17,403 nucleotides of DNA from Candidatus Bathyarchaeum sp. (lineage in GTDB: Archaea > Thermoproteota > Bathyarchaeia > Bathyarchaeales > Bathyarchaeaceae). The translations under genes were made by a program, and so were the position numbers. Below are positions 3,344 through 17,216 of the stretch, piece by piece. The stretch is from positions 2,020-19,422 of the forward strand of contig JAOZIF010000089.1 in assembly GCA_026014495.1 (NCBI GenBank), in the 5' to 3' direction. Within the stretch, counting starts at the first letter, position 1. Each line of letters begins with the position of its first letter. The notes beneath the pieces are model-generated. The model was not told the DNA's origin. It searched no databases and saw only the letters and a program-made list of their open reading frames with translations.

Positions 3344-3625
3344 TTGAGAATGCGAACTTTTTTGGCCTATTTTCATGTAGTGAACTTTGTGATTATGATT
3401 TGTGTTACGGCCTATGTTTTGTCTAGTTTTTGGGGACAAATTCAGGATTGGTGGGTAGCCATTTACAGTTATTATTTGATACTGGGATGTTCAGGCGTAG
3501 TTGTTTCTATGTGGATTGCAATAGATGGAAAACGCTTAGAGCGCTACGCGGTCAAGATAAAAAGCTTAGAAAAGAAGCTTAACAATCTGGAAAAGAAGAT
3601 TAAATTGATAAAACCGCGCAGCTAG
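3344..3625 (+). CDS. Small membrane protein (2 TM + basic coiled-coil tail)
   Basis: Two hydrophobic segments then KIKSLEKKLNNLEKKIK; start may be ATG 3350; overlaps the convergent R15P isomerase stop by 4 nt. Confidence 0.6.
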   Translation: MRMRTFLAYFHVVNFVIMICVTAYVLSSFWGQIQDWWVAIYSYYLILGCSGVVVSMWIAIDGKRLERYAVKIKSLEKKLNNLEKKIKLIKPRS

Positions 3626-4560
3626 GTTGCAAATATCCACGGGTACTTTCTGTTTATCAATTCAGATATCGAGTCTGGAGAAACTACACCCTCTTCGCAT
3701 ATTATTCCATGAATAAATTCTCGTCTAGTAACATCAAATGCAGGATTTCGTATAATCAACCCAGAAGGAGGAGATTCCCAGACCTCTTTGGAGCTTCTTT
3801 CTTCAATTTTTTCATAATCACCAAGAACAGTTGCAGGGTCAAACTTCAACAGCTCCGAAACCACATAAAACGGTGTTCGCGCCTCCTTAGCGGCAAGGGC
3901 AACCATGCTTGTCCCTATCTTGTTTATGACATTACCTTCAGAGGTTATGGCATCAGCGCCCACCACAACCAAATCAATTTCGTTCATGAAAAGCCGCACC
4001 GCAGAATCAACAATCATGGTTGTTTTGATGTTGGAGTCTAACATTTCTTTTGCAGTTAGTCTGCCCTGAAAAACAGGTCTTGATTCGGTGCAAACCACTT
4101 CAAAGGTTTTTCCATCCAGCTTAGCCTTGCGCAGCATATTAGTGACTGTTGAAGAGTGGCAGTGAGTGAGAACCCGTGAATTATTGGAAATTCTTTTGGA
4201 ACCAATAGCCGCAATCTTTTCTTTTGACTGTTCAAGGCGCTCCAAAAATTGGCTGGTAACTTGGGAAACCACAACCGCCAGTTCTTGAACATCTGTTTTG
4301 TTGCTGGATTCCACAGCCTGAATCACATAGCGAACGGCATTTCTCATTAGCGGCTCTGTTGCCCTAGAAGCAAAAAGAAGCTCTTTAGCCTCGAGTAATT
4401 CATTCAGAAACCCAGTTTTAGTTTTCGCCTTGGATTGTGTCACAGCTTCTTTAACAGACGTTATAGCCGCTATTGCCACATTTCGTGCACCCTGAATTTC
4501 AAGCTGCTTTATTCGTTTTGCCGTATCAGAAATTAAGTCATGCAAACCACAATCCCCCAC
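3622..4560 (-). CDS. e2b2: Ribose-1,5-bisphosphate isomerase (eIF-2B/MTNA family)
   Basis: IQGARNVA, ASRATEPLMRN, THCHSS (catalytic Cys), CTESRP, VVGADAI (catalytic Asp), NKIGT, NPAFDVT; same window as AMP phosphorylase and form III RuBisCO. True start may be TTG at 4545. Confidence 0.9.
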   Translation of the reverse strand: MGDCGLHDLISDTAKRIKQLEIQGARNVAIAAITSVKEAVTQSKAKTKTGFLNELLEAKELLFASRATEPLMRNAVRYVIQAVESSNKTDVQELAVVVSQVTSQFLERLEQSKEKIAAIGSKRISNNSRVLTHCHSSTVTNMLRKAKLDGKTFEVVCTESRPVFQGRLTAKEMLDSNIKTTMIVDSAVRLFMNEIDLVVVGADAITSEGNVINKIGTSMVALAAKEARTPFYVVSELLKFDPATVLGDYEKIEERSSKEVWESPPSGLIIRNPAFDVTRREFIHGIICEEGVVSPDSISELINRKYPWIFAT

Positions 4561-4580
4561 TAAACATAGCTATACTAACC

Positions 4581-4603
4581 ATTCAGTGGCTTAAAAACTG
4601 AAT
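4581..4603 (-). promoter_or_regulatory. TATA-like box (TTTTAAG on minus strand) flanked by inverted repeat ATTCAGT-N9-ACTGAAT
   Basis: Perfect 7-bp inverted repeat enclosing the TATA-like box, about 30-50 nt upstream of the R15P isomerase start. Confidence 0.5.
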
Positions 4604-4632
4604 TCTACGAGATAAAAAAAGAAAGAACACAT

Positions 4633-4655
4633 GGGACGTTAAAAAACTGCGTCCA
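4633..4655 (-). terminator. GGACG/CGTCC hairpin followed by T-rich tract after the serA-like gene
   Basis: Stem 4634-4638/4650-4654, 11-nt loop, just after the stop, then TTCTTTCTTTTTTT on the minus strand. Confidence 0.5.
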
Positions 4656-4661
4656 CCAATT

Positions 4662-5576
4662 CTAGCCACGCTTTTTGGAGTTCACATGCTCCTCGATTGC
4701 TTTGATTACGCCTTCGCCCTTCTCTTCGATGGCTTCGTGAGTCTGACCAATACTATGCGGCGTAACGATAGCACGCTCATGTTGAATCAAACTGTTTGCC
4801 AACTCATCATCAAATGGAGTTTTAGAAACAAGAACATCCAAAGCTGCCCCAACTTTGCCAGCCTCTAGAGCATCCAGCAACGCTTTTTCGTTTATGATAC
4901 CGCCTCGTGCAGTGTTAACAAGAAAAACGCCATCCTTCATTTTGGCGATTTCTTCTGCTCCAATAAGGTCGCATGTTCCACTGGTTAACGGACAGTTAAC
5001 AGACATGAAATCGGAGGTTCTTAGGAGTTCATCTAAAGAAACAATAGATACTCCAGGAGCATCTTGAATGCATGGATCAGAAACAATAACTTTCATTCCC
5101 AGAGCAGAACCTAAACGAGCAACTTCTCGCCCAATTTTGCCGCATCCAACAATTCCCAAAGTTTTTCCAGTAACCCTGCAGCCAATCAGGGACGTTTTCT
5201 TCCATTCTCCACGCTTCATGGACCTGTCTCCTTCGACAAGGTTTGTGGCATGCGCAAGAATGTAGGCGATAACGCCCTGTGCAACATCATATGATTGTGC
5301 GGGAACATTGTGGAACTTGATTCCGTGTGCGTTCAGACAGTCTAGGTCAATGTGGTCAATACCGTGGGTTGCGGTTATGACGCATTCAAGGCTTTTCATG
5401 ATGTCTACTAGTTCTTTGTTTACTTTTGTTTTGCTTCGGACAACAAGTATGGTAACCTTGTCTAAAGGTAAACTGTAATCGATGTCACTTGTTTGGAAGA
5501 CTTTCCCAAACTTGGATAATCTATCGAGAAACTCTTTGCCGAAGTTGTCGCACACAAGAATTGTATGGTTGCTCAT
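4662..5576 (-). CDS. serA: D-2-hydroxyacid dehydrogenase, D-3-phosphoglycerate dehydrogenase-like (no ACT domain, divergent active site)
   Basis: VVRSKTKV, Rossmann GIVGCGKIG...SDP, NTARGG, AALDV, TPH; catalytic Glu not conserved (see findings), so the substrate is uncertain. Confidence 0.8.
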   Translation of the reverse strand: MSNHTILVCDNFGKEFLDRLSKFGKVFQTSDIDYSLPLDKVTILVVRSKTKVNKELVDIMKSLECVITATHGIDHIDLDCLNAHGIKFHNVPAQSYDVAQGVIAYILAHATNLVEGDRSMKRGEWKKTSLIGCRVTGKTLGIVGCGKIGREVARLGSALGMKVIVSDPCIQDAPGVSIVSLDELLRTSDFMSVNCPLTSGTCDLIGAEEIAKMKDGVFLVNTARGGIINEKALLDALEAGKVGAALDVLVSKTPFDDELANSLIQHERAIVTPHSIGQTHEAIEEKGEGVIKAIEEHVNSKKRG

Positions 5577-5731
5577 TTTCTACTCACATACTATTTTTTT
5601 GCCGTTTTTGGAGATGCAGTTTGGGAAATCCACTGAACTAATGAAGAGTCCCTCATGCCAAACAGCTCTTTAGCTCAGGGAGAGAGCGCAACGCATTATT
5701 TAAGCATTTATGGATTGATTAAACCCTTTAG

Positions 5732-6814
5732 CTAAATGCTCCATCCAAGACCAGACAAGACTCCCGCTAGGGATTCTAGCATGGAATCTATTGTCTCAAA
5801 TGGCATGTAGCCCATGTTACCTATACGGAATGTGGCGTTTTGTATGCTTCCATAGCCTTTTGCAAGCTCAAAGCCTTCGTCACGCATCTTCTCGTAAACT
5901 GCAACACCATCAACTCCTGGTGGAGCGTTTACACAGTTTACGGTTGGGCTTTCGTACCCGCTCTTGGGGAACATGGTTAGTCCAAGTTTTTGGATGCCTT
6001 CTCTGATGCGGCGGTTGCGTTCTGCGTAAAGGTCAAAGAACCACTGTTTTCCTCCATTCTTTTCAATCACATCAAGAATAGCGTGTAATCCAGCAATCTG
6101 AGGAATCGTTGAAGTCATGGGCGTGCCCTTCTTTTGCTGATATTTTTCCCACACCTTAAAGTCAAAGTACCAGCCCTTATTTTTTGCAGTTTCAGACGCT
6201 TTGAGGGCATCTTTGCTTACGCTTCCCACGCTTAATCCAGGAGGAACCCCAAAACATTTCTGTGAACTGGAAAAGCACACATCCAAGCCCCACTTGTCAA
6301 CATCGATTCTGGTTCCGCCCATGGAACTTACACAGTCAACAAGCAACAGTTTGCCATGACTTTTTACTACGCCAGCCAGCTCTGCTAAGTGGTTCATTAA
6401 ACCAACACTTGTTTCGTTATGGGTTACAGAAACAGCCTCAACATCCTTGGTCTGGGACAGCTTCTCATCAAGCAAATCTGGAGTAATAGGTTCACCTAAA
6501 GGAACTTCGAGTGGTTCCACCTGTTTTCCGTTTGCGGTTCCGGTCTCGGCAAACCTTTCACCGAAGTTTCCACAGATACAAGAAAGCATCTTCTTGTTTA
6601 CACAGTTTAGTACAGACGCTTCCATGAATCCAGAGCCAGTGCTCGAAAACAGGAAAACCTCATTTTGTGTTCCCATGAACCGCTGCAGCATCTCCACGGT
6701 TTCAACATGCAGTTTCTTGTATTCTGCACTGCGGTGACTAACCATTTGCATACCCATTGCCTTTAGAACCTCTGGGTAGCAGGCAACAGGACCAGCAGTA
6801 AACAACTTCAACAA
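5732..6814 (-). CDS. Class V PLP aminotransferase (serine-pyruvate/serine-glyoxylate/archaeal phosphoserine aminotransferase family)
   Basis: FTAGP, SHRS, HNETSVG, VDCVSSMGG, SSQK(PLP)CFGVPPG, FRIGNMG; GGTGA SD before TTG. Confidence 0.92.
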   Translation of the reverse strand: MLKLFTAGPVACYPEVLKAMGMQMVSHRSAEYKKLHVETVEMLQRFMGTQNEVFLFSSTGSGFMEASVLNCVNKKMLSCICGNFGERFAETGTANGKQVEPLEVPLGEPITPDLLDEKLSQTKDVEAVSVTHNETSVGLMNHLAELAGVVKSHGKLLLVDCVSSMGGTRIDVDKWGLDVCFSSSQKCFGVPPGLSVGSVSKDALKASETAKNKGWYFDFKVWEKYQQKKGTPMTSTIPQIAGLHAILDVIEKNGGKQWFFDLYAERNRRIREGIQKLGLTMFPKSGYESPTVNCVNAPPGVDGVAVYEKMRDEGFELAKGYGSIQNATFRIGNMGYMPFETIDSMLESLAGVLSGLGWSI

Positions 6815-6851
6815 TATTTCACCTATCTACTTGTAAAACAAGAAAAATAAG

Positions 6852-6864
6852 TATTAAACCTTTC
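6852..6864 (-). promoter_or_regulatory. BRE-TATA promoter of the aminotransferase (GAAAGG-TTTAATA)
   Basis: Canonical archaeal BRE + TATA about 38 nt upstream of the start. Confidence 0.55.
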
Positions 6865-6878
6865 AGCCACAACTAAAG

Positions 6879-8576
6879 CTAAGAACGTTGTAAACGTACG
6901 CCAAACATTCTACTCCAAAACACAGCAACCAAACTCACAACCAAAAACAAAGGCAGAATAACCCATGCGGGAAACTCGGGGATTACAAAGTTTGACGGAA
7001 ACTCGGGGCTTGAAGTAGGCATTGCTTCAGAGTTTGGCTCAGTCAAAAAGGGAGTGAAAGAAACGGTGCCTAAGTCAAAATCGTATTTTGAGTCATGAAT
7101 TGTCAGGTTGATTGCTTGGGTGTCTGTTGTGCCCCACCAATTATTTGCAGCTGAGATGTCGTTTGGTGTGTCGGTTAAGTAGATGCTGTTTTCGGCATAG
7201 TTCTTGATATTATTGTAACTGAGTGTAATAGAAGAACAGTTTCCTAGATTAATTGCCACTGTCGTGTTGGAAATTGTGTTTCTTTGGATGGTTACAGGTA
7301 AGCTAGCTGATATTCCTGTTAAACTGTTTGTTATCAAATTATTTTCAATCACTGCTGACCCTCCGTCGCCACCACCAATTCCCACGGTATTATTGGATAT
7401 TGTGTTGTTACGAATTACAACATTACCCGCACCATAATCATATTCATTGAATCCCGAAAAGGTAATGTGACCTATCGCTATGCCTTTACCATTGTTTGTG
7501 ATCAAATTTCCTTCAATTGTTGAACCCCCTGCTGCCCGAATACCATAAATAGAATCAAAAATGACGTTGCCAAAAATGTGAGTATAGCCTTCTGTAAGGG
7601 TGATTCCATAACCGCCAAGAGGACTACTAATTATGTTGTTTGAAATTACAGACGAATCTCCTCGAATACTGATTGCAGAAGACGAGTCATTCGCTCGTCC
7701 ACCCCAATCATAGGTTGGCTCGCCTCCAGCAATAGTATTATTTGCGATTGTACAAGAAACTCCGCTAATTTTGCCAGTAAGTGTATTATCTGAAATTACT
7801 GCAAAAGAGCATTTAACAGTGCCAGTAATTGTGTTACTGGAAATAGTGGATGATTCACCAATAACATCTCCAACAATTGTGTTGTTTGAAATTACACATG
7901 AACCACTAACAGAGATGGCATAACATAGATCATAATACAATGCATATGCTTGTCCCTGAGCATCAGTTCCTGTAATTGTGTTGTCCGAAATTACCGAAGA
8001 GTCTCCTGCACTAATTGCATAGGGTAATGAACTAGTAGAAGAGAAATGTCTGCCCTTAATTGTGCTCTTCACAATTATAGACGATGCCCCAACAGTGATT
8101 TCTCCAATAATGTTACTGTTGCTTATCTTTAGAGAACCATTACTGGATAGCGTTACATCTTCAAGAACCACATGTTCAAGTATGCACCCAGAACCATCCT
8201 GCTCACTCCACGGGATACTACTGGATGTAAAGTCTATTTCGTCACAGTTAACGAAACGAACGGTTTCAACATCATTGCCTTTTGCACATAAAGCACCGTC
8301 CACACGTATGTGGTAGCCATTCAAGTCAACAGTTACTCCAGATTCAACGGTCAAAGTTACCCCAGCGTTCACAAGTAAAGGTCCAGTGAGGTTGTATGGA
8401 CTGTCTGCCTTTGTCCACGTAGTATCCGAACCAATAACGACAACCAACCCAGATTGTGCAGAAATTGGCACCGCACCAAAATTTAGGGTAATGGCTAAAA
8501 CTAATGCAGTAACAAGAAATGCAATTAAAAATTCACGTGTAACTGATTTCTTTATGACAGGCAATCCAATTAACAC
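6879..8576 (-). CDS. Secreted right-handed beta-helix surface protein with duplicated PEF-CTERM motif
   Basis: Signal peptide ending PISAQS; DTTWTKADSPYNLTGPLLVNAGVTLTVESGV N-domain; many I-S-x-N-T-I coils; SAANNWWGT...YDFDLG; PEFP...IPEFP + TM + basic tail. Confidence 0.9.
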   Translation of the reverse strand: MLIGLPVIKKSVTREFLIAFLVTALVLAITLNFGAVPISAQSGLVVVIGSDTTWTKADSPYNLTGPLLVNAGVTLTVESGVTVDLNGYHIRVDGALCAKGNDVETVRFVNCDEIDFTSSSIPWSEQDGSGCILEHVVLEDVTLSSNGSLKISNSNIIGEITVGASSIIVKSTIKGRHFSSTSSLPYAISAGDSSVISDNTITGTDAQGQAYALYYDLCYAISVSGSCVISNNTIVGDVIGESSTISSNTITGTVKCSFAVISDNTLTGKISGVSCTIANNTIAGGEPTYDWGGRANDSSSAISIRGDSSVISNNIISSPLGGYGITLTEGYTHIFGNVIFDSIYGIRAAGGSTIEGNLITNNGKGIAIGHITFSGFNEYDYGAGNVVIRNNTISNNTVGIGGGDGGSAVIENNLITNSLTGISASLPVTIQRNTISNTTVAINLGNCSSITLSYNNIKNYAENSIYLTDTPNDISAANNWWGTTDTQAINLTIHDSKYDFDLGTVSFTPFLTEPNSEAMPTSSPEFPSNFVIPEFPAWVILPLFLVVSLVAVFWSRMFGVRLQRS

Positions 8577-8601
8577 AATTAAATACTACATTAACTAGCT
8601 A

Positions 8602-8635
8602 GAAAAGAATTTTTGTCAAGAAACATTGACCAAAA
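8602..8635 (-). promoter_or_regulatory. 34-bp conserved upstream block with GTCAA-N6-TTGAC palindrome (8615-8630), copy 2
   Basis: Reverse complement is 33/34 identical to 118-151. Confidence 0.75.
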
Positions 8636-8658
8636 CAATTCTAAATGAAAAAACCTCA

Positions 8659-8677
8659 AGTCAAGAAACGTTGACTA
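8659..8677 (-). promoter_or_regulatory. Distal palindrome AGTCAA-N6-TTGACT
   Basis: 8660-8675 is 15/16 identical to 8615-8630, 45-bp spacing. Confidence 0.65.
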
Positions 8678-8684
8678 TCCAAAC

Positions 8685-9701
8685 TTATTGTTTTTGTAAT
8701 TCAGTTTTGTACAAGAATAGGGCAGGCAGACCGCCTGTGTGAAAGAACACTACGTTGTCATCTGCTTTGAAGTAGCCTTTCTTGATTAGGTCAATTAGCA
8801 TGACCATTGCTTTGCCTGTGTAGATTGGATCTAGAAAGATTCCTTCAGTGTGGGCAACAAGTTTGAGGGCACTTGTAACTTCGTTGTTTATTATGCCGTA
8901 GCCTTCCTTGATGTAGTCATCAAAGACAGCCACATCCTCAGGAACAATTGACACGCCAACACCAAACAACTTTGCAGACCTATTAACTAGCCCAGCAACA
9001 GTGTTTGCGGCGTCGGTTTTGCTTGCAAAAACGCTTGCAGCCAAAATCTTGGCTTTAGTGTCCAGTAGTTTTGTTCCAAAGATTAGACCTGCTTGGGTTC
9101 CGCCTGTTCCGCACGCACATACAATATAATCAATCGTTTCTCCAAGTTCATGAAATTGGTTTACTAACTCTTCCATAGCAAGGGCGTACCCTGGAACAGT
9201 TAAGGGAAGTGAAGCTCCAGCAGGAATAACATAAGGATGATGCCCCTGTTTTTTGTATTGTTCAGCTAAACGGTTCATGTAATCGTCAACGTGTGGACCA
9301 TAGCCTTCTATGAAATGAATCTCCGCGGACAGCATCTTGTCCAAAAGCAGGTTTCCATCGTAAACTTCAGGTTCTTCTCCTACAAGAACTAGCACAGGCT
9401 TTATTCCAAGCCTTCGTGCAGCAGCCGCAACCATGCAAACACAGTTTGACTGAATCGCACCTACACAAATCACAACATCAGCACCCTTGTTTTGGGCGTC
9501 TGCAAAAAGAAACTCCAGTTTTCTGGCTTTGTTACCTCCAAAGGCTAGGTCTGTCATGTCGTCTCGTTTCACGAAGAGCCTTGGACCATTTAGAGCCTTT
9601 GAGAGGCGAGGCATCTTTTGTAGGGGGGTTGGAAAACCAGCGAAACATGTTTTCTGTGTGTGCATTTTTTGTAAAGCCATCAGTTTGCTAGATTTGACCA
9701 A
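8685..9701 (-). CDS. dcyD: D-cysteine desulfhydrase family PLP enzyme
   Basis: KRDDMTDLAFGGNK(PLP)ARKLEF, GAIQSN, CGTGGTQAG, DPIYTGKA and FFHTGG (Thr, not the Glu/Leu of ACC deaminase); AAGGAG SD. Confidence 0.85.
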   Translation of the reverse strand: MVKSSKLMALQKMHTQKTCFAGFPTPLQKMPRLSKALNGPRLFVKRDDMTDLAFGGNKARKLEFLFADAQNKGADVVICVGAIQSNCVCMVAAAARRLGIKPVLVLVGEEPEVYDGNLLLDKMLSAEIHFIEGYGPHVDDYMNRLAEQYKKQGHHPYVIPAGASLPLTVPGYALAMEELVNQFHELGETIDYIVCACGTGGTQAGLIFGTKLLDTKAKILAASVFASKTDAANTVAGLVNRSAKLFGVGVSIVPEDVAVFDDYIKEGYGIINNEVTSALKLVAHTEGIFLDPIYTGKAMVMLIDLIKKGYFKADDNVVFFHTGGLPALFLYKTELQKQ

Positions 9702-9853
9702 TTATTTTGGCTCCTTAAGCTGATGTATAACAGTTAGTGGTACTTGAATCTGTAAGTTTCGGTTGATTTCAAATCCAGAATATAAAGCATTAACAAAAAA
9801 CAGAAAGTTTTAATAGATAAATAAATTGTCACCGTTCAGGGAATGGTTTCACT

Positions 9854-10822
9854 TTGGCAGTAAAATCGGTCTTAGATTTCATTGGAAACACGCCACTTAT
9901 TCAACTAAACAGCAAAGAAGGCGTATTCAGTACTTTTGAAGCAAACCTGTACGCAAAAGTAGAGTATGTTAACCCAAGCGGAAGCATCAAAGACCGAATT
10001 GCAAAATACATGATTGAGCAAGCCGAAAAACGTGGCGACCTAAAGCCCGGATACACAATCATCGAAGCCACAAGCGGAAACACAGGCATCGCATTTAGCA
10101 TGGCAGGCGCAGCCAAAGGCTACAAAGTAGTTATAGTCATGTGCGAAACCATGACAGAAGAAAGACGCAACTTTATGCGAGCATACGGCGCAGAGGTAAT
10201 ATCTACCCCAGCATGCGATAGCCTGAAAGGCGCAGTAGACAAAGCAAAGGAGCTTGCTAAAAATCCGGGTTACTGGATGCCAGCGCAGTTTGACAATTAC
10301 GACAACGTTGAAGCCCACAGGATAATAATGGGCAAAGAAATCATAAACCAAGTTCCGAACGGATGGGTTGACGCTTTTGTTGCTGGAGTAGGCACAGGAG
10401 GCACCCTTATGGGCGTAGCCAAAGCCCTCAAAGAAGTGAATCCCAACGTGCTGATAGTTGCGGCTCAGCCAGCAAGCTCTCAAGAGCTTACAGGCGGAAA
10501 AGTGGGAGAGCACAGAATAGATGGAATTGGCGATGGCTTTATTCCAAACATAGTAGACAAGTCCATTATTGATGAGGCAGTAAACGTTGAAGACGAAACC
10601 GCAGTAAGCTGGAGCAGAATGCTCGCAAGCAAAAAGGGACTGTTCGCGGGAATATCTTCAGGCGCCAACGTGTACGCGGCAGTGGAAATTGCAAAAAAGT
10701 TGAAGAAGGGACAAACGGTTGTCACAGTTTTGCCTGACAGCCAAGACAGATACGCAAGCCTAGGAATCTTCACAAACAAAAAAGCCAAAGAAATACATGT
10801 CCCAAAAACGTTCGCGCCCTAA
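9854..10822 (+). CDS. cysK: Cysteine synthase family PLP enzyme (CysK/CysM-like)
   Basis: IGNTP, NPSGSIK(PLP)DR, ATSGNTG, QFDN, GVGTGGT, GIGDG, GISSG. Confidence 0.9.
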   Translation: MAVKSVLDFIGNTPLIQLNSKEGVFSTFEANLYAKVEYVNPSGSIKDRIAKYMIEQAEKRGDLKPGYTIIEATSGNTGIAFSMAGAAKGYKVVIVMCETMTEERRNFMRAYGAEVISTPACDSLKGAVDKAKELAKNPGYWMPAQFDNYDNVEAHRIIMGKEIINQVPNGWVDAFVAGVGTGGTLMGVAKALKEVNPNVLIVAAQPASSQELTGGKVGEHRIDGIGDGFIPNIVDKSIIDEAVNVEDETAVSWSRMLASKKGLFAGISSGANVYAAVEIAKKLKKGQTVVTVLPDSQDRYASLGIFTNKKAKEIHVPKTFAP

Positions 10823-10875
10823 AATCAACAGTTTTTTAGTTAGATTCAAGTGTCATATGTTCCTTAGTGTAGGGT

Positions 10876-11493
10876 ATGCAAGAGAAGTATCTGGTTTTCA
10901 CTGGAAGACCCAATGCAGGCAAAAGTAGTCTGGTCAAAGAACTTACGGGCTTGAACATAGTAACGGGTAAGCATGCAGGAACTACACGAAAAGTCAAAAA
11001 ATATCCTTTAAGTGACGGCTTAGTTTTTGTAGACCTTCCGGGACTAGGAAAAATGGTTGGAGTTTCCAAACAATTCGAAGAAAAAGTTAATGAACAAATC
11101 ATCGAGTTCTTGGAAAACAACGCCAAAGACATAATTTTAGCCGTCGCAGTCTTGGACATATCCACTTTTCTAGAAGTAACTTGGCGGCTAGAAAAAAAGG
11201 GAATCATGTCAGTAGACGTTGAAATGGTAAAGTTTTTGGCATCCAATTTAGGCGAATTCCCCTTAGTTGCAGCCAACAAAATCGACAAAACAAACAAAAA
11301 AGAACTGCAAGCTAACCTCAACGACTTTATGTACAGAATAAGTGACGGTGACCCAACAAAAGTAAAAGACAACGTATTTCCAATTAGCGCAAAAAAAGGA
11401 ACAGGCATAGGAGAACTGAAAAGCGTCATTCACACAAAGCTGGTAGAGAAGGGTTACAAAACACCATTCAAGGTCCAAAGTAACGAAAAGTAA
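10876..11493 (+). CDS. engB: GTP-binding protein EngB/YsxC family
   Basis: G1 GRPNAGKSS, G2 GTT, G3 DLPG, G4 NKID, G5 ISAK. Confidence 0.88.
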   Translation: MQEKYLVFTGRPNAGKSSLVKELTGLNIVTGKHAGTTRKVKKYPLSDGLVFVDLPGLGKMVGVSKQFEEKVNEQIIEFLENNAKDIILAVAVLDISTFLEVTWRLEKKGIMSVDVEMVKFLASNLGEFPLVAANKIDKTNKKELQANLNDFMYRISDGDPTKVKDNVFPISAKKGTGIGELKSVIHTKLVEKGYKTPFKVQSNEK

Positions 11494-11539
11494 GCAAGTT
11501 TTGGATAATAATTATTCTAATTAAAAAAACAGAAAAAGC

Positions 11540-11579
11540 TAGTTTTCAACAATGAACCTCTATTAGTCTCTTAATATGC
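11540..11579. repeat. 40-bp intergenic motif, copy B
   Basis: 33/40 identical to 1432-1471; lies between convergent engB and membrane-protein genes. Confidence 0.8.
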
Positions 11580-11638
11580 TTGACGACTTGCAACGAATAA
11601 TTATTGTTAAACAAAAAGAGAAAAAAGAAGCCCAGTTG

Positions 11639-12058
11639 CTACTTTTCTTTTGCCATGTCAAGAACGGATTTTATTGATATTATCACAGCTGCTGGAGCTG
11701 CAAAAGCCACAACATATGACAGGACAGCAGAAGCCCAAAAGAATAGCAAAGGATGCAGATACCATAAGCCTGCCCACACGTTTGCCCCAGACGCCACTAA
11801 CAACGCAATAGTTGCAATAAGGAAACCAGAAACTTCTCTTCGGGTGATGCTTGTAAGCCCAACAACAGAACCCAAAACCAGCATTGCAAAAAGCACATAC
11901 CCATCGCTCGTTTTGATGTTTGCTGCCCAGTTAGCTGGCGGGTCAGTAGGTGTTAGTATATATGAGTCATACGCGGAGTAACCCAGAATAAGCCCAGCGA
12001 ATACTGCCACTGCAACAAAAATTATGTAAGCCCATTGTGCAATCTCTTGCATGTTCAT
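11639..12058 (-). CDS. Uncharacterised multi-pass membrane protein (about 4 TM)
   Basis: Hydrophobic helices (GLTSITRREVSGFLIATIALL, VAFAAPAAVIISIK); own TATA (TTTATAA near 12093-12100, minus strand); T-tract after the stop. Confidence 0.8.
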   Translation of the reverse strand: MNMQEIAQWAYIIFVAVAVFAGLILGYSAYDSYILTPTDPPANWAANIKTSDGYVLFAMLVLGSVVGLTSITRREVSGFLIATIALLVASGANVWAGLWYLHPLLFFWASAVLSYVVAFAAPAAVIISIKSVLDMAKEK

Positions 12059-12122
12059 TGTTATCCCAAAAACACAGAAGGTTAAGGATGCATTATAAAT
12101 TTTCTGTACTTTCTCCTAAAAC

Positions 12123-12160
12123 AAAAAACTGAAAAAAAGGGACGAAACAAATTCCGTCCA
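12123..12160 (-). terminator. GGACG/CGTCC hairpin + oligo-T after rbcL
   Basis: Stem 12140-12144/12155-12159, 10-nt loop, followed on the minus strand by CTTTTTTTCAGTTTTTT. Confidence 0.6.
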
Positions 12161-12169
12161 TAAAATCGC

Positions 12170-13390
12170 TTATTTCCATAGCTCTAAGGCAACATGCAAT
12201 TCTTTGTGAGACTTAGCATATTCCTGCAACGATATTCCATTTAGGGTTGCGTCCACCGCTTGTCTCATAGCAACTGCGCCACAGACAGTCCCATCTGTAT
12301 GCCCATGAATCCCTCCGCCAGCCTGAATCACTAAATCATTCCCAAAGAATTTCATTAAAGCAGGAACCAAACTAGGATAAAGACCACCAGACGCAACAGG
12401 TAAGGCCTTCTTTAAACCATACATGTCTGTTTTAAGTGCCTCACAGTTTTCGGAAACCTCGTCCTTGGTTTCAGACATTTTACCCACAACAGTTCCAACA
12501 TGAAGCTGATCAACACCAATAATTCGCGCAACCTTTGCGATAACCTTCATCGAAACTCCATGCTTAGGGTTGTTAGTGAAGGCTGCATGTCCTGCACGGT
12601 GGGCATGAAGTATCAAACCAAAATCGTGTTCACGTATTGTCTGCAACGCAGAATATCCACAGGTCAAAATGTCAATCATCAAATATCTTCCGCCATGGTC
12701 TTTAACAAACTGTGCACGCTTAATCATTTCTTGAGTTTCTGAGGTGATATTAACCATGTACACCTTCTTTTCTCCAGTTTCAGATTCAGCGCGGTCCCGC
12801 ATCTCAAGAGTAGCAACAAGACGGTCATCAAAAGGATTGAAACGTTGACTACTAAGGTTCTCGTCGTCTTTTACTACGTCACATCCTCCAATCCAAGCGT
12901 CATACGCTACCTTTGCATGGTCTTTTGTTTTCAATCCTAGTTTTGGCTTGATAATTGTCCCAACAAAGGGTCTATCCTTAACTCCTAGTAGTTCACGGAT
13001 TCCAGTGACACCATACTTGGGGCCTTTGAAGCTTTGAACCAACTGTTTTGGCAATTGGATGTCGTTTAGTCGCAGGTTTTTGAGTGCACGCAATCCAAAC
13101 ACGTTTCCAGCAACACTGCTTAGGATGTTAGGCATGTTGCCGGGTTCAAATAGTTCAATTGGATAAGCAATACGGATATTGTTGCCGTTTATTCTGAACA
13201 CGCATGCAGCAAGCTTTTCCACGTAAGGCTTTATTGTAGTAAGTTCAGTCCATGTTCCCACTGAACTTTCGGCTGCAACGCCTCCAGCCGCCTCTGTTAA
13301 GCTGATTCCTTCTGGTTCAACATAAAAGTCACAGATTAGGTCGGTTGCCTTTGGCTCGTAAGATTGGTCAACAAAATCTACGTATTTCAA
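12170..13390 (-). CDS. rbcL: Ribulose-1,5-bisphosphate carboxylase, archaeal form III
   Basis: AAESSVGTWT, GNVFG, IKPKLG (K175/K177), DVVKDDE (K201 motif), HAHRAGH, HVGTVVGKM (K334), ASGG, QAGGG; TTG start with GAGGG SD. Confidence 0.96.
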   Translation of the reverse strand: MKYVDFVDQSYEPKATDLICDFYVEPEGISLTEAAGGVAAESSVGTWTELTTIKPYVEKLAACVFRINGNNIRIAYPIELFEPGNMPNILSSVAGNVFGLRALKNLRLNDIQLPKQLVQSFKGPKYGVTGIRELLGVKDRPFVGTIIKPKLGLKTKDHAKVAYDAWIGGCDVVKDDENLSSQRFNPFDDRLVATLEMRDRAESETGEKKVYMVNITSETQEMIKRAQFVKDHGGRYLMIDILTCGYSALQTIREHDFGLILHAHRAGHAAFTNNPKHGVSMKVIAKVARIIGVDQLHVGTVVGKMSETKDEVSENCEALKTDMYGLKKALPVASGGLYPSLVPALMKFFGNDLVIQAGGGIHGHTDGTVCGAVAMRQAVDATLNGISLQEYAKSHKELHVALELWK

Positions 13391-13459
13391 CGTTAATCAA
13401 CAACCCTCTTAGTACAACTCAACTAATATTATAATTGTGATGATGATATAGATTAACAG
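13391..13459. promoter_or_regulatory. Compact bidirectional promoter rbcL / AMP phosphorylase
   Basis: Only AT-rich core is TATTATAATT with palindromic TTATAA at 13429-13434; GTTAATC (13392-13398) / GATTAAC (13451-13457) inverted pair at the ends. Confidence 0.6.
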
Positions 13460-15019
13460 TTGTGGAATGTCATGGAATTCAAGGTTAAACTGTTGGAAAT
13501 AAGATCAGGTGGAAAACAGATAATAGTTATAGATGACGAATACGCGAGCCTGCTTGGAATTCATTCTTCGGACAGGGTTGAAGTTGCATACAAAAAACAG
13601 AACATAATTGCCATTGCTAATGTAGCCACAGATTTTCCTAAGAAAAATTTGGGAATTTACGAAGAGGTTCAAGACAAACTCAAAATCCAAGAAGGAGAAA
13701 CTGTAACTGTTCGCCCAGCTGAAAGACCTGAATCCCTTGGATACATACGCAACAAGATTAATGGACAAAGACTTACAGCTCCAGAAATAAAGAGCATAAT
13801 ATTGGATGTTGTTGAAAGGCACCTAAGCGACGTTGAATTAGCCTCTTTTGTCACAAGCCTGCACATTCACGGAACAAGCATGGATGAAGTTGAAGCATTA
13901 ACCAAAGCCATGGTGGAAACAGGACAAACCATAGACTTTGGCAAAGGTGCAATCTTGGATAAACATAGCATAGGTGGAGTTCCAGGAGACAAAACCACCA
14001 TTCTCGTAGTTCCTATAGTCGCAGCCGCTGGCTTTACAATTCCTAAAACGTCTTCTCGGGCGATAACTTCTCCAGCAGGCACAGCTGATAGAGTGGAAGT
14101 TTTGTGTCCAGTTGACTTAACATGTGAAGAGATGCGCAGCATTGTAAAGAAAACTAATGCGTGTTTAGCATGGGGCGGTGCACTTGAGCTTGCTCCAGCT
14201 GATGACCTTCTTATTCAAGTTGAGTATCCTCTTTCCATTGACCCTTTGTTGTTGCCTTCAATTCTAAGTAAAAAGAAGGCGATAGGCGCCGATTACATTG
14301 TGGTTGATATACCCACGGGAAGAGGCACAAAAATCAAGACCATTGGAGAAGCCCAAACTTTGGCGCGAGAGTTCATAGAATTGGGCAAACGATTAGACAT
14401 GCACATCCAGTGTGGAGTAACCTTTGGTGAGCAGCCAATAGGTTATGCTATAGGACCAGCTCTTGAAGCAAGGGAAGCACTCTTGGCGCTAATGGGCAAA
14501 GGCCCCATAGATTTAGTGAACAAGGCAGCTAGTTTAGCGGGGCTACTCTTTGAGATGATGGGAGCAAAAGATGGCATAAAGGAAGCAAATAACATTCTTA
14601 AATCAGGTAAAGCTGAAAAGAAACTCAGGGAAATTATTGCCGCACAAGGCGGAGACCCTAACGTGAAACCTGAAGACATAGAGATTGGAAAACAGGTAGC
14701 AGAGATTTGTTCAGACGAGGCAGGCAGGGTTCAGTGGATAAATAACAGAAACATTGCACAGATAGCAAGAATAGCGGGAGCACCTAAAACTAAGTCTGCA
14801 GGCGTATTACTGAATAAGAAGCTTGGAGACAAAGTGGCAACAGGAGATGTGCTATACAGGATTTATTCGGGTAGCACACAAAAACTGGAGTCCGCTGTTC
14901 GAATAGCCGAAAAACTAAATCCATATGGAGTAACTGGAAAGTTTGGCGAAAAAATGCTGGTTGACCGCATTCCAAGCAAGAAAATTTACTACGAGAAGCC
15001 ATTCATTCTGGAACGCTAA
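13460..15019 (+). CDS. deoA: AMP (NMP) phosphorylase, thymidine phosphorylase family
   Basis: Archaeal N-terminal barrel (GIHSSDRVEV), DKHSIGGVPGDKT, KTSSRAITSPAGTAD, DIPTGRGTKI; start may be ATG 13472. Confidence 0.95.
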   Translation: MWNVMEFKVKLLEIRSGGKQIIVIDDEYASLLGIHSSDRVEVAYKKQNIIAIANVATDFPKKNLGIYEEVQDKLKIQEGETVTVRPAERPESLGYIRNKINGQRLTAPEIKSIILDVVERHLSDVELASFVTSLHIHGTSMDEVEALTKAMVETGQTIDFGKGAILDKHSIGGVPGDKTTILVVPIVAAAGFTIPKTSSRAITSPAGTADRVEVLCPVDLTCEEMRSIVKKTNACLAWGGALELAPADDLLIQVEYPLSIDPLLLPSILSKKKAIGADYIVVDIPTGRGTKIKTIGEAQTLAREFIELGKRLDMHIQCGVTFGEQPIGYAIGPALEAREALLALMGKGPIDLVNKAASLAGLLFEMMGAKDGIKEANNILKSGKAEKKLREIIAAQGGDPNVKPEDIEIGKQVAEICSDEAGRVQWINNRNIAQIARIAGAPKTKSAGVLLNKKLGDKVATGDVLYRIYSGSTQKLESAVRIAEKLNPYGVTGKFGEKMLVDRIPSKKIYYEKPFILER

Positions 15020-15031
15020 GCAATATGTCAC

Positions 15032-15706
15032 GTGATTTTGATGGTTAAAGCGGTTATCTTTGACTGGGACGGAACACTTGCAGACACAAGAAGCGCCGTG
15101 GTTCAGTCTTTTCAGAAGGTCTTAACAGAAGCAGGCTGCAGTGTTAGTGACGAATTTATAGAAAGGCGCATGGGAATTGGAACAAAAAAGACAATTATAC
15201 AAGCATTTAGAGAATGCAACATGCGACTTGACGTTTCAACGCTGGAAAAGCTTGTAAATACAAAAGTTACGATGCATGCAGGACTCGCAAAGATTGTGAG
15301 CATACTTGCGGGAGTCACTGAACTTTTGGATGTGCTACATGGAAAAGTAAAGCTTGCTGTGGCAACAATGAGCAATAGAGCAGTTATTGACACGCTACTA
15401 CCTGCAAAAGGAATCGCGTCATACTTTGAGGTTGTAGTTTCGGCGGATGATATTGCAAATCCAAAGCCTGACCCTGAAGTGTTCTTGATGACAGCAGAGA
15501 AATTGGGGGTCGAACCAAAAGAGTGTGTGGTTGTTGAGGATTCAGTTTTTGGCATAGAAGCTGCTAGGGCGGCAAACATGAGGTGCATAGCTGTTTCTTC
15601 AGGAGTTTACAGTAAAGAAGAACTACAAAAAGAACAGCCTGACATGGTGGTTGGCTCTCTTGCTGAAAAAGAGAACATACTGGAGTTCATTTTCGGCAGT
15701 GGCTAG
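15032..15706 (+). CDS. HAD-superfamily phosphatase, subfamily IA variant 3 (beta-PGM/CbbY-like)
   Basis: Motif I DWDGT, motif II VATMS, motif III KPDPEVF, motif IV VEDS; 12 bp after the deoA stop (likely co-transcribed). Confidence 0.9.
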   Translation: MILMVKAVIFDWDGTLADTRSAVVQSFQKVLTEAGCSVSDEFIERRMGIGTKKTIIQAFRECNMRLDVSTLEKLVNTKVTMHAGLAKIVSILAGVTELLDVLHGKVKLAVATMSNRAVIDTLLPAKGIASYFEVVVSADDIANPKPDPEVFLMTAEKLGVEPKECVVVEDSVFGIEAARAANMRCIAVSSGVYSKEELQKEQPDMVVGSLAEKENILEFIFGSG

Positions 15707-15850: not shown

Positions 15851-16267
15851 ATGCTACTCCCCTGCGAAGTTGCAGTCAAATCAGTGATTCCAGCCATTCG
15901 ATCAGCAATAGCAAGAGAACTAACACAAACACATGGACTCAAACAAAAAGAGGTAGCTGAACTTTTAGGAATAACACAAACTGCTGTCAGCAAATACACA
16001 AGATTCTACAGAGGAACAGTCATAGAAGTTCAAAGAATAGAAGAGGCAAACTTTGTTATCCAACAAACTGTTACCGCGCTAGCTAAGGGTCAAATGGACA
16101 AATATGAACTTGCAGAAAAACTTTGCACCATCTGCGGAGTAATTAGAGAAAAAGGCGTTATGTGTGAATTGTGTTCACTGTCAGACCCAGACATAGAGAA
16201 CAATAAATGTATAGTTTGCTGTCCAAGCAATAAAACAAGAATGGAACAGCTCAAAAAAAGCAAGTAA
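15851..16267 (+). CDS. Archaeal XRE-type HTH transcription regulator (COG2522-like) with Cys-rich C-terminus
   Basis: LPCE...IPAIRSAIAREL, HTH KQKEVAELLGITQTAVSKY; CxxC at 92/95, 105/108, 120/123. Confidence 0.85.
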   Translation: MLLPCEVAVKSVIPAIRSAIARELTQTHGLKQKEVAELLGITQTAVSKYTRFYRGTVIEVQRIEEANFVIQQTVTALAKGQMDKYELAEKLCTICGVIREKGVMCELCSLSDPDIENNKCIVCCPSNKTRMEQLKKSK

Positions 16268-16307: not shown

Positions 16308-17216
16308 TTATTTTGCAGCTTTCTTTGTGGTTTTCTTTGCAGTTGTCTTTTTTGCTGTCTTTGTGGTTTTTGTTTCAGCTTTAGGTTTAGCTTTAGGTTT
16401 CTTTTCAGCTACTGATGCCTTTGTTTTCGGTTTTGCAGTTGTTTTTTCTGTTTCCTTTTTGGGCTTGGCAGGTTTCTTAGCGGCTTTTGTTGCAGTTTTC
16501 TTTTTTGTTTCTTTTTTGGGCGTAGCAGCTTCTGGTTTACTGAATGATTCAACGAACTGGACGGTTGTTAGCTCTGGTAGAAAGCGCTGTATGTCCATTG
16601 CGATGCCTCTTTTTGCTAACTGAATACCTTCAACGTAGAAGGATTCGTCAGGCATATTCACGGTAACGTTTGCTTTTACAATTTTGAAGTTGAACTTTTC
16701 AACCTCAACTGCAGGTATTCGACGATGAATAAGTGCAGAAACTTTTTCTTCAGCAGTTTTAAGTTGTTTTTGGATGGTAACCTCGTACACAAGTGTTTTA
16801 CCAGCCAAGGGCGGATTAAAGTCAAGTGTTACGCGTCCAGAGCCCATGGTTCGCACAGTTGCGAGTCTTTTGTCGTACTCGATTTGTGCTCCCAGCCTAG
16901 GGGTTATTCCTCGGGCTGCGAGGCGTCGAATGGGAACAAGTTTGACTTTTTCTGAATCTCTGTTTCCGAAGGCATTCTCTGGGGGAATTTCTACAGAATC
17001 TTTTTTATTGATTTTGAATGTGAGGAGCGCTTCGTCTAGGGCTTTTAGTAGCCATCCTTCTCCAGCTACCACGAGTCTTGGCTCGTAGATGTCTCCTTCT
17101 TTGTAGAGTTTATTCTCTTTTGCTATTTCCTCGGAGGTTGTGTCAAAAACATCTCCAGTTTCTTTAACCTTACCAGTATAATCAACAATAATGAAGTCGC
17201 TTTTTTGAATTGGCAA
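16308..17216 (-). CDS. slyD: Long-type archaeal FKBP peptidyl-prolyl isomerase (SlyD-like) with Lys/Ala/Thr-rich tail
   Basis: DYTGKVKETGDVFDTT, GEGWLLKALDE, PPENAFG, LDFNPPLAGKTLVY; C-terminal domain, then a 76-aa low-complexity tail. Confidence 0.9.
   Translation of the reverse strand: MPIQKSDFIIVDYTGKVKETGDVFDTTSEEIAKENKLYKEGDIYEPRLVVAGEGWLLKALDEALLTFKINKKDSVEIPPENAFGNRDSEKVKLVPIRRLAARGITPRLGAQIEYDKRLATVRTMGSGRVTLDFNPPLAGKTLVYEVTIQKQLKTAEEKVSALIHRRIPAVEVEKFNFKIVKANVTVNMPDESFYVEGIQLAKRGIAMDIQRFLPELTTVQFVESFSKPEAATPKKETKKKTATKAAKKPAKPKKETEKTTAKPKTKASVAEKKPKAKPKAETKTTKTAKKTTAKKTTKKAAK

Follow-up and report, generated by a model that had tools for sequence, protein, structure and literature searches.

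Interleaved AMP–RuBisCO and serine/cysteine genes in Candidatus Bathyarchaeum: ordinary enzymes of two known pathways in a lineage-specific arrangement

Introduction

A pathway composed of adenosine monophosphate (AMP) phosphorylase, ribose-1,5-bisphosphate (R15P) isomerase and form III RuBisCO was reportedly described in Thermococcus kodakarensis by Sato et al. in 2007. The AMP pathway has previously been reported for Bathyarchaeia as well (PMC8407382), and a route leading from 3-phosphoglycerate (3-PGA) through O-phosphoserine to serine and cysteine, the 'Cys2' route, is established in T. kodakarensis (TK1966, TK1548) and Aeropyrum pernix (PMC5120207). The present analysis concerns a stretch of 17,403 nucleotides (the window) from a Candidatus Bathyarchaeum metagenome-assembled genome (MAG; GCA_026014495.1, contig JAOZIF010000089.1, positions 2,020 to 19,422), in which genes of both kinds are interleaved: those for AMP phosphorylase, form III RuBisCO and R15P isomerase all lie inside 12 kb, and genes predicted to serve the synthesis of serine and cysteine (Ser/Cys genes) stand between them. 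The enzymes encoded in the cluster are ordinary members of two known pathways, and their arrangement is specific to the lineage. The best explanation, to which we give a probability of about 0.6, is that the ancestor of the genus to which Ca. Bathyarchaeum tardum belongs underwent a rearrangement that joined two ordinary modules.

Two further systems bear on a HAD-family gene that lies past the AMP phosphorylase gene deoA. T. kodakarensis, an anaerobe with a form III RuBisCO, removes 2-phosphoglycolate by means of TK1734, TK0683 and TK0186, and RuBisCO-bearing strictly anaerobic archaea are often without such a removal system (PMC11032457). In haloarchaea, the ribulose-1,5-bisphosphate (RuBP) phosphatase is a HAD enzyme that works with a FucA aldolase encoded in the same operon (PMC9700705).

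Materials and methods

The MAG that carries the window comprises 2.19 Mb in 196 contigs, is 93% complete and has a GC content of 41%. Its genus is that of Ca. Bathyarchaeum tardum (Bathyarchaeia), whose complete genome shows 72-87% identity to the MAG protein by protein; no 16S rRNA was found in the MAG. Genes in the window were called from six-frame open reading frames (ORFs) together with family scans (Pfam, NCBIfam/TIGR models with their cut-offs, and PDB relatives), and scores are given below in bits, with the cut-off of the model where it has one. For the analysis of synteny, 80 loci were fetched via the alignment of R15P isomerase and each was scanned with all proteins of the window. The family-level sample comprised 31 genomes from 20 genera, and the within-genus sample 25 species genomes.

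The AMP pathway and its split arrangement

On the minus strand of the window lie the genes for R15P isomerase (R15PI; 3622-4560; e2b2 family, step 2 of the AMP pathway), a short D-2-hydroxyacid dehydrogenase of 304 residues that resembles phosphoglycerate dehydrogenase (PGDH; 4662-5576), a class V (AGXT-type) aminotransferase that is predicted to be a phosphoserine aminotransferase (5732-6814), and a pyridoxal phosphate (PLP) enzyme of the D-cysteine desulfhydrase / 1-aminocyclopropane-1-carboxylate deaminase family (8685-9701). Beyond them come the gene of the cysteine synthase CysK on the plus strand (9854-10822) and that of the form III RuBisCO large subunit, rbcL, on the minus strand (12170-13390). 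The latter is divergent from deoA (13460-15019, plus strand) across a gap of 69 nt, and a HAD-IA hydrolase gene (15032-15706, plus strand) begins 12 nt past deoA. The first-pass annotation, made from the sequence with no database searches, had placed deoA, rbcL and the R15PI gene within 12 kb, with the Ser/Cys genes between them and the HAD gene past deoA; all the genes it named are found where it put them, and its identifications agree with family models, PDB relatives and motifs.

As judged from these matches, the AMP / pentose-bisphosphate pathway is complete. The AMP phosphorylase, which is of the DeoA type with an N-terminal extension, matches TIGR03327 over its full length (641 bits, cut-off 535), and the RuBisCO passes TIGR03326 (567 bits, cut-off 497) with the active-site motifs KPKLG, VKDDE, HRAGH, VGKMS and GGGIHGH intact. 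For R15PI, TIGR00511 is the top family and is matched over the full length, but with 288 bits, under the cut-off of 314. Its best solved relatives are the R15P isomerases of Pyrococcus horikoshii and T. kodakarensis (213 and 204 bits), aIF2B and MtnA score at most 129 bits against it, and the catalytic Cys (THCHS) and Asp (GADAIT) are kept in the alignment. Of the three further e2b2 paralogues that the genome encodes, two resemble MtnA, the methylthioribose-1-phosphate isomerase (C150:363-1256 and C16:56897-57784), and the third, on contig C194, is aIF2B-like.

With all three enzymes recognised at the level of families and with intact catalytic motifs, the locus resembles the T. kodakarensis-type AMP pathway, from which it differs in that R15PI scores slightly under its family cut-off. 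It differs from that pathway and from the usual Bathyarchaeia trio in layout also, since in Bathyarchaeum the trio is split and R15PI, in inverted orientation, is found behind the Ser/Cys genes at a distance of 5-8 kb from rbcL.

Gene order in relatives

On the evidence of gene neighbourhoods, the AMP and Ser/Cys modules are evolutionarily independent, because each occurs without the other in relatives. In about 45 Bathyarchaeia loci (R15PI identity 59-72%), R15PI, RbcL and DeoA are adjacent as a compact trio, and none of the aminotransferase, dehydrogenase, desulfhydrase-family and CysK genes lies within 10 kb of it; a HAD gene is near the trio in only one of these loci, as a 31% match. The same trio is found at two DPANN loci, likewise with no Ser/Cys genes within 10 kb. 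In ten genomes from sister genera within the same family, 25-40 bp separate RbcL from R15PI, a spacing that is kept in every non-genus genome of the family-level sample that has RbcL together with a window-type R15PI. Further, an orthologue of the aminotransferase is present in a RuBisCO-negative genome that is 96% complete (G308), and two RuBisCO-positive genomes (G081 and G140) have neither the aminotransferase nor the dehydrogenase; in their stead, these two genomes encode a short SerA of canonical type, a paralogous aminotransferase and a glyoxylate reductase that is PH0597-like. Read from gene order, the interleaving is a single derived rearrangement that is confined to one genus.

Within that genus, the aminotransferase, dehydrogenase and R15PI genes are together in 23/23 genomes that have them. 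The dehydrogenase and R15PI genes are neighbours in all 23 of the genomes that have both, with insertions of 0.8-3.2 kb between them in three species. RbcL-DeoA has moved off in four species, to a distance of 32 kb or 676 kb or to other large contigs. The first-pass annotation had proposed synteny as the check on a coupling of the two pathways and would have given the coupling up if the Ser/Cys genes proved to be unlinked from the AMP pathway in close relatives. The outcome is divided: the genes are linked in the genus, and unlinked in the sister genera and at the ~45 loci.

One genome of the genus (G203; 7 contigs, 92% complete) has SerB but no gene for RbcL, R15PI, dehydrogenase or aminotransferase. 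Its use as a natural knockout was considered and set aside, as the four genes are contiguous in relatives and one deletion or one assembly gap explains their absence.

Candidate enzymes of serine synthesis

The dehydrogenase scores 223 bits against TIGR01327 over the N-terminal 302 positions of the model, whose cut-off is 454, in keeping with its short form. Its twelve best PDB matches are PGDHs without exception, and it reaches 154 bits against the 455 required by the glyoxylate/hydroxypyruvate reductase model NF009714. The catalytic Arg and His are retained, as are the cationic VRSK and W-K-K residues at the phosphate-binding positions of PGDHs. The catalytic Glu of DVFxxEP is replaced by Thr (DVLVSKTP), and TATHG stands where GRAGxG is expected, so that the GRAG Arg is lost, followed by an insertion of 3-4 residues (PFDDE). 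Orthologues share these changes, the Glu position varying among T, K, S and Q, and a more distant homologue (L047) has ATHG with the Glu retained.

The aminotransferase (Pfam Aminotran_5) matches the 'serine aminotransferase' PH1308 of P. horikoshii (PDB 2DR1) with 394 bits, and it reaches only 41-57 bits against the canonical SerC models TIGR01364/01366; the two remaining Aminotran_5 genes of the genome are both NifS-type desulfurases. TK1548 of T. kodakarensis, which typifies the same PH1308/TK1548 group, is assigned the phosphoserine aminotransferase step (PMC5120207). SerB is encoded on contig C82 (TIGR00338, 262-264 bits, cut-off 144), has ACT and phosphatase domains, and is present in every genome tested.

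A tblastn search of the MAG revealed no further 2-hydroxyacid dehydrogenase or AGXT-type aminotransferase, and in a TIGR01327 search of five genomes, one of them the complete genome of B. tardum, this dehydrogenase was the only match. SepRS was not found in the genome, and neither the MAG nor the complete genome of B. tardum has a match to SerK (NF053625). By these searches, the dehydrogenase and the aminotransferase are the sole SerA/SerC candidates in the MAG and in B. tardum. They most likely constitute the housekeeping phosphoserine pathway, because no other serA/serC candidates exist, SerB is encoded elsewhere, SepRS is absent, and their orthologues in another family have a phosphoserine-type context. 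In that other Bathyarchaeia family (f26), orthologues of the aminotransferase (67% identity) and of the dehydrogenase (50%) are paired.

At the locus in this family (L044:103-6936), the order is TrpB2-like, aminotransferase, Glu-less dehydrogenase, SerK-like and adenylate kinase, with serine hydroxymethyltransferase (GlyA) on the opposite strand and no R15PI. The SerK-like gene of the locus codes for a protein that resembles ParB and matches SerK weakly, at 93 bits against 380. At a sister-genus locus (L048:9384-12220), three genes stand next to one another, for a canonical short SerA (DVFEEEPP), a class V aminotransferase with 30% identity and a PH0597-like glyoxylate reductase; the genome of the window has a counterpart to none of them.

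Cysteine synthase and the missing cysE

CysK passes the O-acetylserine-type equivalog TIGR01139 (372 bits, cut-off 351), has the PLP Lys and the TSGNT loop, and finds its nearest solved structures among bacterial O-acetylserine sulfhydrylases. A CysM-like paralogue is on contig C194. The desulfhydrase-family enzyme just passes TIGR01275 (291 bits, cut-off 289), and its PDB relatives are 7YSK, 4D8T and 1J0A. Its best NCBIfam scores are to the cysteate sulfo-lyase CuyA (330 bits, under 450) and to the coenzyme M enzyme XcbE (292 bits, below cut-off). The gene is directly upstream of the aminotransferase gene, in the same orientation, in most loci of the genus. A bypass from serine to pyruvate via this enzyme was weighed as a possible rationale for the cluster and rejected as energetically pointless.

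A serine acetyltransferase had been noted as missing from the window, and the same holds for the whole MAG (93% complete), where the best match to the cysE model, of 50 bits, is a generic hexapeptide repeat. A canonical serA, serC or cysE elsewhere in the genome had been suggested as a further check. The MAG has none of them, and a cysE-like gene is found in B. tardum and three other relatives, followed in B. tardum by a canonical cysK. This cysE-cysK pair of B. tardum (L049:5410-7427) is cleanly missing at the syntenic site of the MAG, where the conserved flanks are 110 bp apart (C113, ~50575-50685). Direct use of O-phosphoserine by CysK is possible.

Intergenic elements

In the gap between the dehydrogenase and R15PI genes (4561-4661, minus strand), a hairpin and an oligo-T run are followed by an invariant TATA-like element, TTTAAG; the T-run and TTTAAG are kept in 12 loci of the genus. 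In the gap between the aminotransferase and dehydrogenase genes (5577-5731, minus strand), two elements common to 12 genus loci lie at 5640-5712: TAAATGCTTAAATAAT, a TATA-like block of 16 nt that is invariant, and TCCCTGAGCTAAAGAGCTGTTTGGCA, a conserved element of 26 nt. They may represent a promoter plus an operator. The 26-nt element was found once in the genome by a genome-wide fuzzy search. Each gene has a promoter-like element of its own, and separate transcription units appear the likelier arrangement.

Two other possibilities were tried and rejected. A riboswitch or structured leader upstream of the dehydrogenase gene found no Rfam match, and 12 orthologous leaders gave no consensus structure or covariation. 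A regulatory motif shared across the cluster was found neither by repeat search nor by the genome-wide fuzzy search for the 26-nt element, and the repeats that do occur in the cluster belong to beta-helix genes and to a dispersed 47-nt element.

The HAD hydrolase

The HAD-IA enzyme (Pfam HAD_2) passes no NCBIfam model. It scores 139 bits against the 153 of the beta-phosphoglucomutase (beta-PGM) family model, and 103 against 180 and 107 against 225 with the phosphoglycolate phosphatase models TIGR01449 and NF009695. Its PDB relatives are beta-PGM, TM1254 and CbbY (66-72 bits for CbbY), and it resembles the bacterial phosphoglycolate phosphatase Gph no more than it does beta-PGM or CbbY. As with CbbY, the xylulose-1,5-bisphosphate phosphatase (PDB 4UAR, 4UAV), and with the haloarchaeal RuBP phosphatase (PMC9700705), the gene is beside those of a pentose-bisphosphate pathway. 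It departs from those cases in that the similarity is weak and does not exceed that to beta-PGM or TM1254; there is no neighbouring gene for a FucA-type aldolase, such as accompanies the haloarchaeal enzyme, and the adjacency to deoA is seen in the genus Bathyarchaeum only. The product is a putative sugar-phosphate or small-acid phosphatase.

Neighbouring genes

Three genes within the span were left unmentioned by the first-pass annotation: those for a beta-helix (NosD-like) surface protein of 565 residues (6879-8576, minus strand; Pfam Beta_helix and NosD), an EngB-type GTPase, which is an unrelated housekeeping gene (10876-11493, plus strand; NF003255, 160 bits, cut-off 164), and, between EngB and rbcL, a hydrophobic small membrane-protein ORF of 139 residues with no family match (11639-12058, minus strand). 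The beta-helix gene, which sits between the desulfhydrase-family and aminotransferase genes and is not at this place in most relatives, is an insertion outside the metabolic set. A tandem GTCAA-N6-TTGAC cassette at 8584-8675 belongs to it, and the same cassette precedes a NosD-like gene at 106-1212. EngB is at this place in some genus loci only. A 47-nt direct repeat, 83% identical, occupies intergenic positions 1425-1471 and 11533-11579. Past the HAD gene lie genes for an HTH protein (15851-16267, plus strand; Pfam HTH_3) and an FKBP (16308-17216, minus strand; Pfam FKBP_C).

Discussion

In the first of the two modules, AMP phosphorylase would make ribose-1,5-bisphosphate, R15P isomerase would turn it into ribulose-1,5-bisphosphate, and form III RuBisCO would combine this with CO2 to give two molecules of 3-PGA. 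In the second, a housekeeping Ser/Cys module, the divergent short PGDH-like dehydrogenase would convert 3-PGA to phosphohydroxypyruvate, the PH1308/TK1548-type aminotransferase would form O-phosphoserine, and SerB, encoded elsewhere, would release serine; CysK and the putative desulfhydrase-family PLP enzyme would belong here too. As 3-PGA is common to both, serine could be fed by the product of RuBisCO. The second module recalls the Cys2 route of T. kodakarensis and A. pernix (PMC5120207) in its PGDH-like dehydrogenase, its type of aminotransferase, the SerB encoded elsewhere, the CysK, and the lack of a serine acetyltransferase in the MAG. It differs from that route in that the dehydrogenase is without the catalytic Glu, CysK looks like the bacterial O-acetylserine enzymes rather than those of the O-phosphoserine type, and SerK is absent; moreover, the close relative B. 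tardum has cysE.

Several observations weigh against the view that two ordinary modules were simply joined by rearrangement. The set of aminotransferase, dehydrogenase and R15PI persists throughout the genus, down to an R15PI identity of 71%, even where RbcL-DeoA has left, and this persistence could reflect selection for co-location. At one locus (L008:6378-10956, genome G206), RbcL, aminotransferase, dehydrogenase and R15PI are contiguous and co-directional. The lack of cysE in the MAG, with its empty syntenic site, would leave room for a cysteine route based on O-phosphoserine, and the loss of the catalytic Glu and the GRAG Arg means that PGDH activity cannot be taken as assured for the dehydrogenase. 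The L008 locus has no CysK, desulfhydrase-family gene or EngB, and its R15PI match has one in-frame TAA.

The first-pass annotation had gone further and proposed that nucleotide ribose and CO2 are channelled into serine and cysteine. Its enzymology is reasonable, given the sole SerA/SerC candidates, the SerB elsewhere and the phosphoserine context of the orthologues, but a dedicated channel is not supported, with linkage in one genus only. In its strong form, the cluster would be a selected unit that routes nucleotide ribose and CO2 via 3-PGA and O-phosphoserine into serine and cysteine, which we regard as rather unlikely. The identity of the RuBisCO product with the PGDH substrate, the adjacency of dehydrogenase and R15PI in 23/23 genomes and the contiguous genes at L008 speak for such a unit. 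The history of the locus speaks against it: the linkage amounts to one evolutionary event, the ~45 other loci and the ten sister genera have the AMP trio without Ser/Cys genes, and the two modules occur independently in relatives. Each gene has its own promoter-like element, a T-run precedes R15PI, insertions reach 3.2 kb, and RbcL and DeoA are separated from the remainder in four species. Further, as the sole serA/serC candidates, the dehydrogenase and aminotransferase must serve the general supply of serine whatever the carbon source.

The same proposal has CysK or the CysM-like paralogue use O-phosphoserine directly, in an organism that has no serine acetyltransferase, and this too we consider doubtful. 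The absence of cysE from the MAG and the empty syntenic site agree with it, as does the absence of SerK, since O-phosphoserine must then derive from 3-PGA; the route itself has been established for both A. pernix and T. kodakarensis (PMC5120207). However, the sequence of CysK passes an equivalog model of the O-acetylserine type and has bacterial enzymes of this type as its nearest relatives, and B. tardum retains cysE with a canonical cysK.

A bolder combination would have selection keep R15PI beside the Glu-less SerA variant and the aminotransferase, with 3-PGA derived from nucleotides and CO2 as the preferred source of O-phosphoserine and then of cysteine, without serine acetyltransferase. 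We hold this to be decidedly unlikely. A selected coupling has in its favour that the dehydrogenase and R15PI genes stay paired throughout the genus, but on the gene orders compared it would rest on a single evolutionary event.

It has also to be asked whether the dehydrogenase, the aminotransferase and the desulfhydrase-family enzyme act instead on other anionic substrates of three carbons, with sulfolactate, sulfopyruvate and cysteate or D-amino acids as candidates, serine being made otherwise. Sulfonates are isosteric with phosphate esters, the dehydrogenase is without its catalytic Glu and has an altered substrate loop, and CuyA and XcbE are the best NCBIfam matches of the desulfhydrase-family enzyme (330 and 292 bits). 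These matches are all below their cut-offs, though; SerB in every genome implies a source of O-phosphoserine for which there is no other SerA/SerC candidate, and in another family the two orthologues have TrpB2-like, SerK-like and GlyA genes for neighbours. This alternative is very unlikely.

Least of all can the cluster be credited with the second proposal of the first-pass annotation, in which the HAD enzyme, the aminotransferase and the dehydrogenase clean up the products of RuBisCO oxygenation by a photorespiration-like or T. kodakarensis-like chain from 2-phosphoglycolate through glycolate, glyoxylate, glycine/serine and hydroxypyruvate to glycerate; both the clean-up and this chain are highly improbable. 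The proposal had its attractions, in that the aminotransferase is of the AGXT / serine-glyoxylate family, HAD-IA enzymes include Gph, and the genome of this organism, with its form III RuBisCO and presumed anaerobic life, has a phosphatase, a 2-hydroxyacid dehydrogenase and an aminotransferase. TK0185 is presumably the R15P isomerase gene of T. kodakarensis. In that anaerobe with form III RuBisCO, where 2-phosphoglycolate removal is known, the glyoxylate aminotransferase gene TK0186 adjoins TK0185 (PMC11032457). Here, by contrast, the phosphatase is HAD-IA, falls below every phosphoglycolate-phosphatase model cut-off and is closer to beta-PGM, TM1254 and CbbY, and no TK1734-type HAD-IIA phosphatase (Hydrolase_6) was found in the MAG or B. 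tardum. The dehydrogenase is PGDH-like and not TK0683/PH0597-like, being nearer to PGDHs than to glyoxylate/hydroxypyruvate reductases with its cationic VRSK and W-K-K kept; a genuine PH0597-like reductase occurs in the sister genus and none here; and the aminotransferase, being class V, does not resemble TK0186. Neither of the two glycerate kinase families (PF05161, PF02595) has a match in the MAG or the complete B. tardum genome, and with SerK absent as well the cycle could not return carbon to 3-PGA. Moreover, the HAD-deoA adjacency and the aminotransferase linkage are missing in other RuBisCO-bearing Bathyarchaeia, and strictly anaerobic RuBisCO archaea are often without such a system (PMC11032457).

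Bathyarchaeia are abundant in anoxic sediments and have barely been cultured, and their carbon flow is therefore inferred from gene content. The joining of two ordinary modules, as favoured here, guards against taking a lineage-specific gene order for a new pathway. It also fixes annotations for the genus, namely that serine synthesis has the dehydrogenase and aminotransferase as its sole candidates, that the AMP pathway is predicted to be complete, and that this species is without cysE and SepRS. The Glu-less PGDH-like enzyme is the most testable oddity of the locus. If strong coupling were true, nucleic-acid scavenging would be tied to the supply of sulfur amino acids in sediment archaea, and the route from nucleotides to cysteine would be one that has not been described before.

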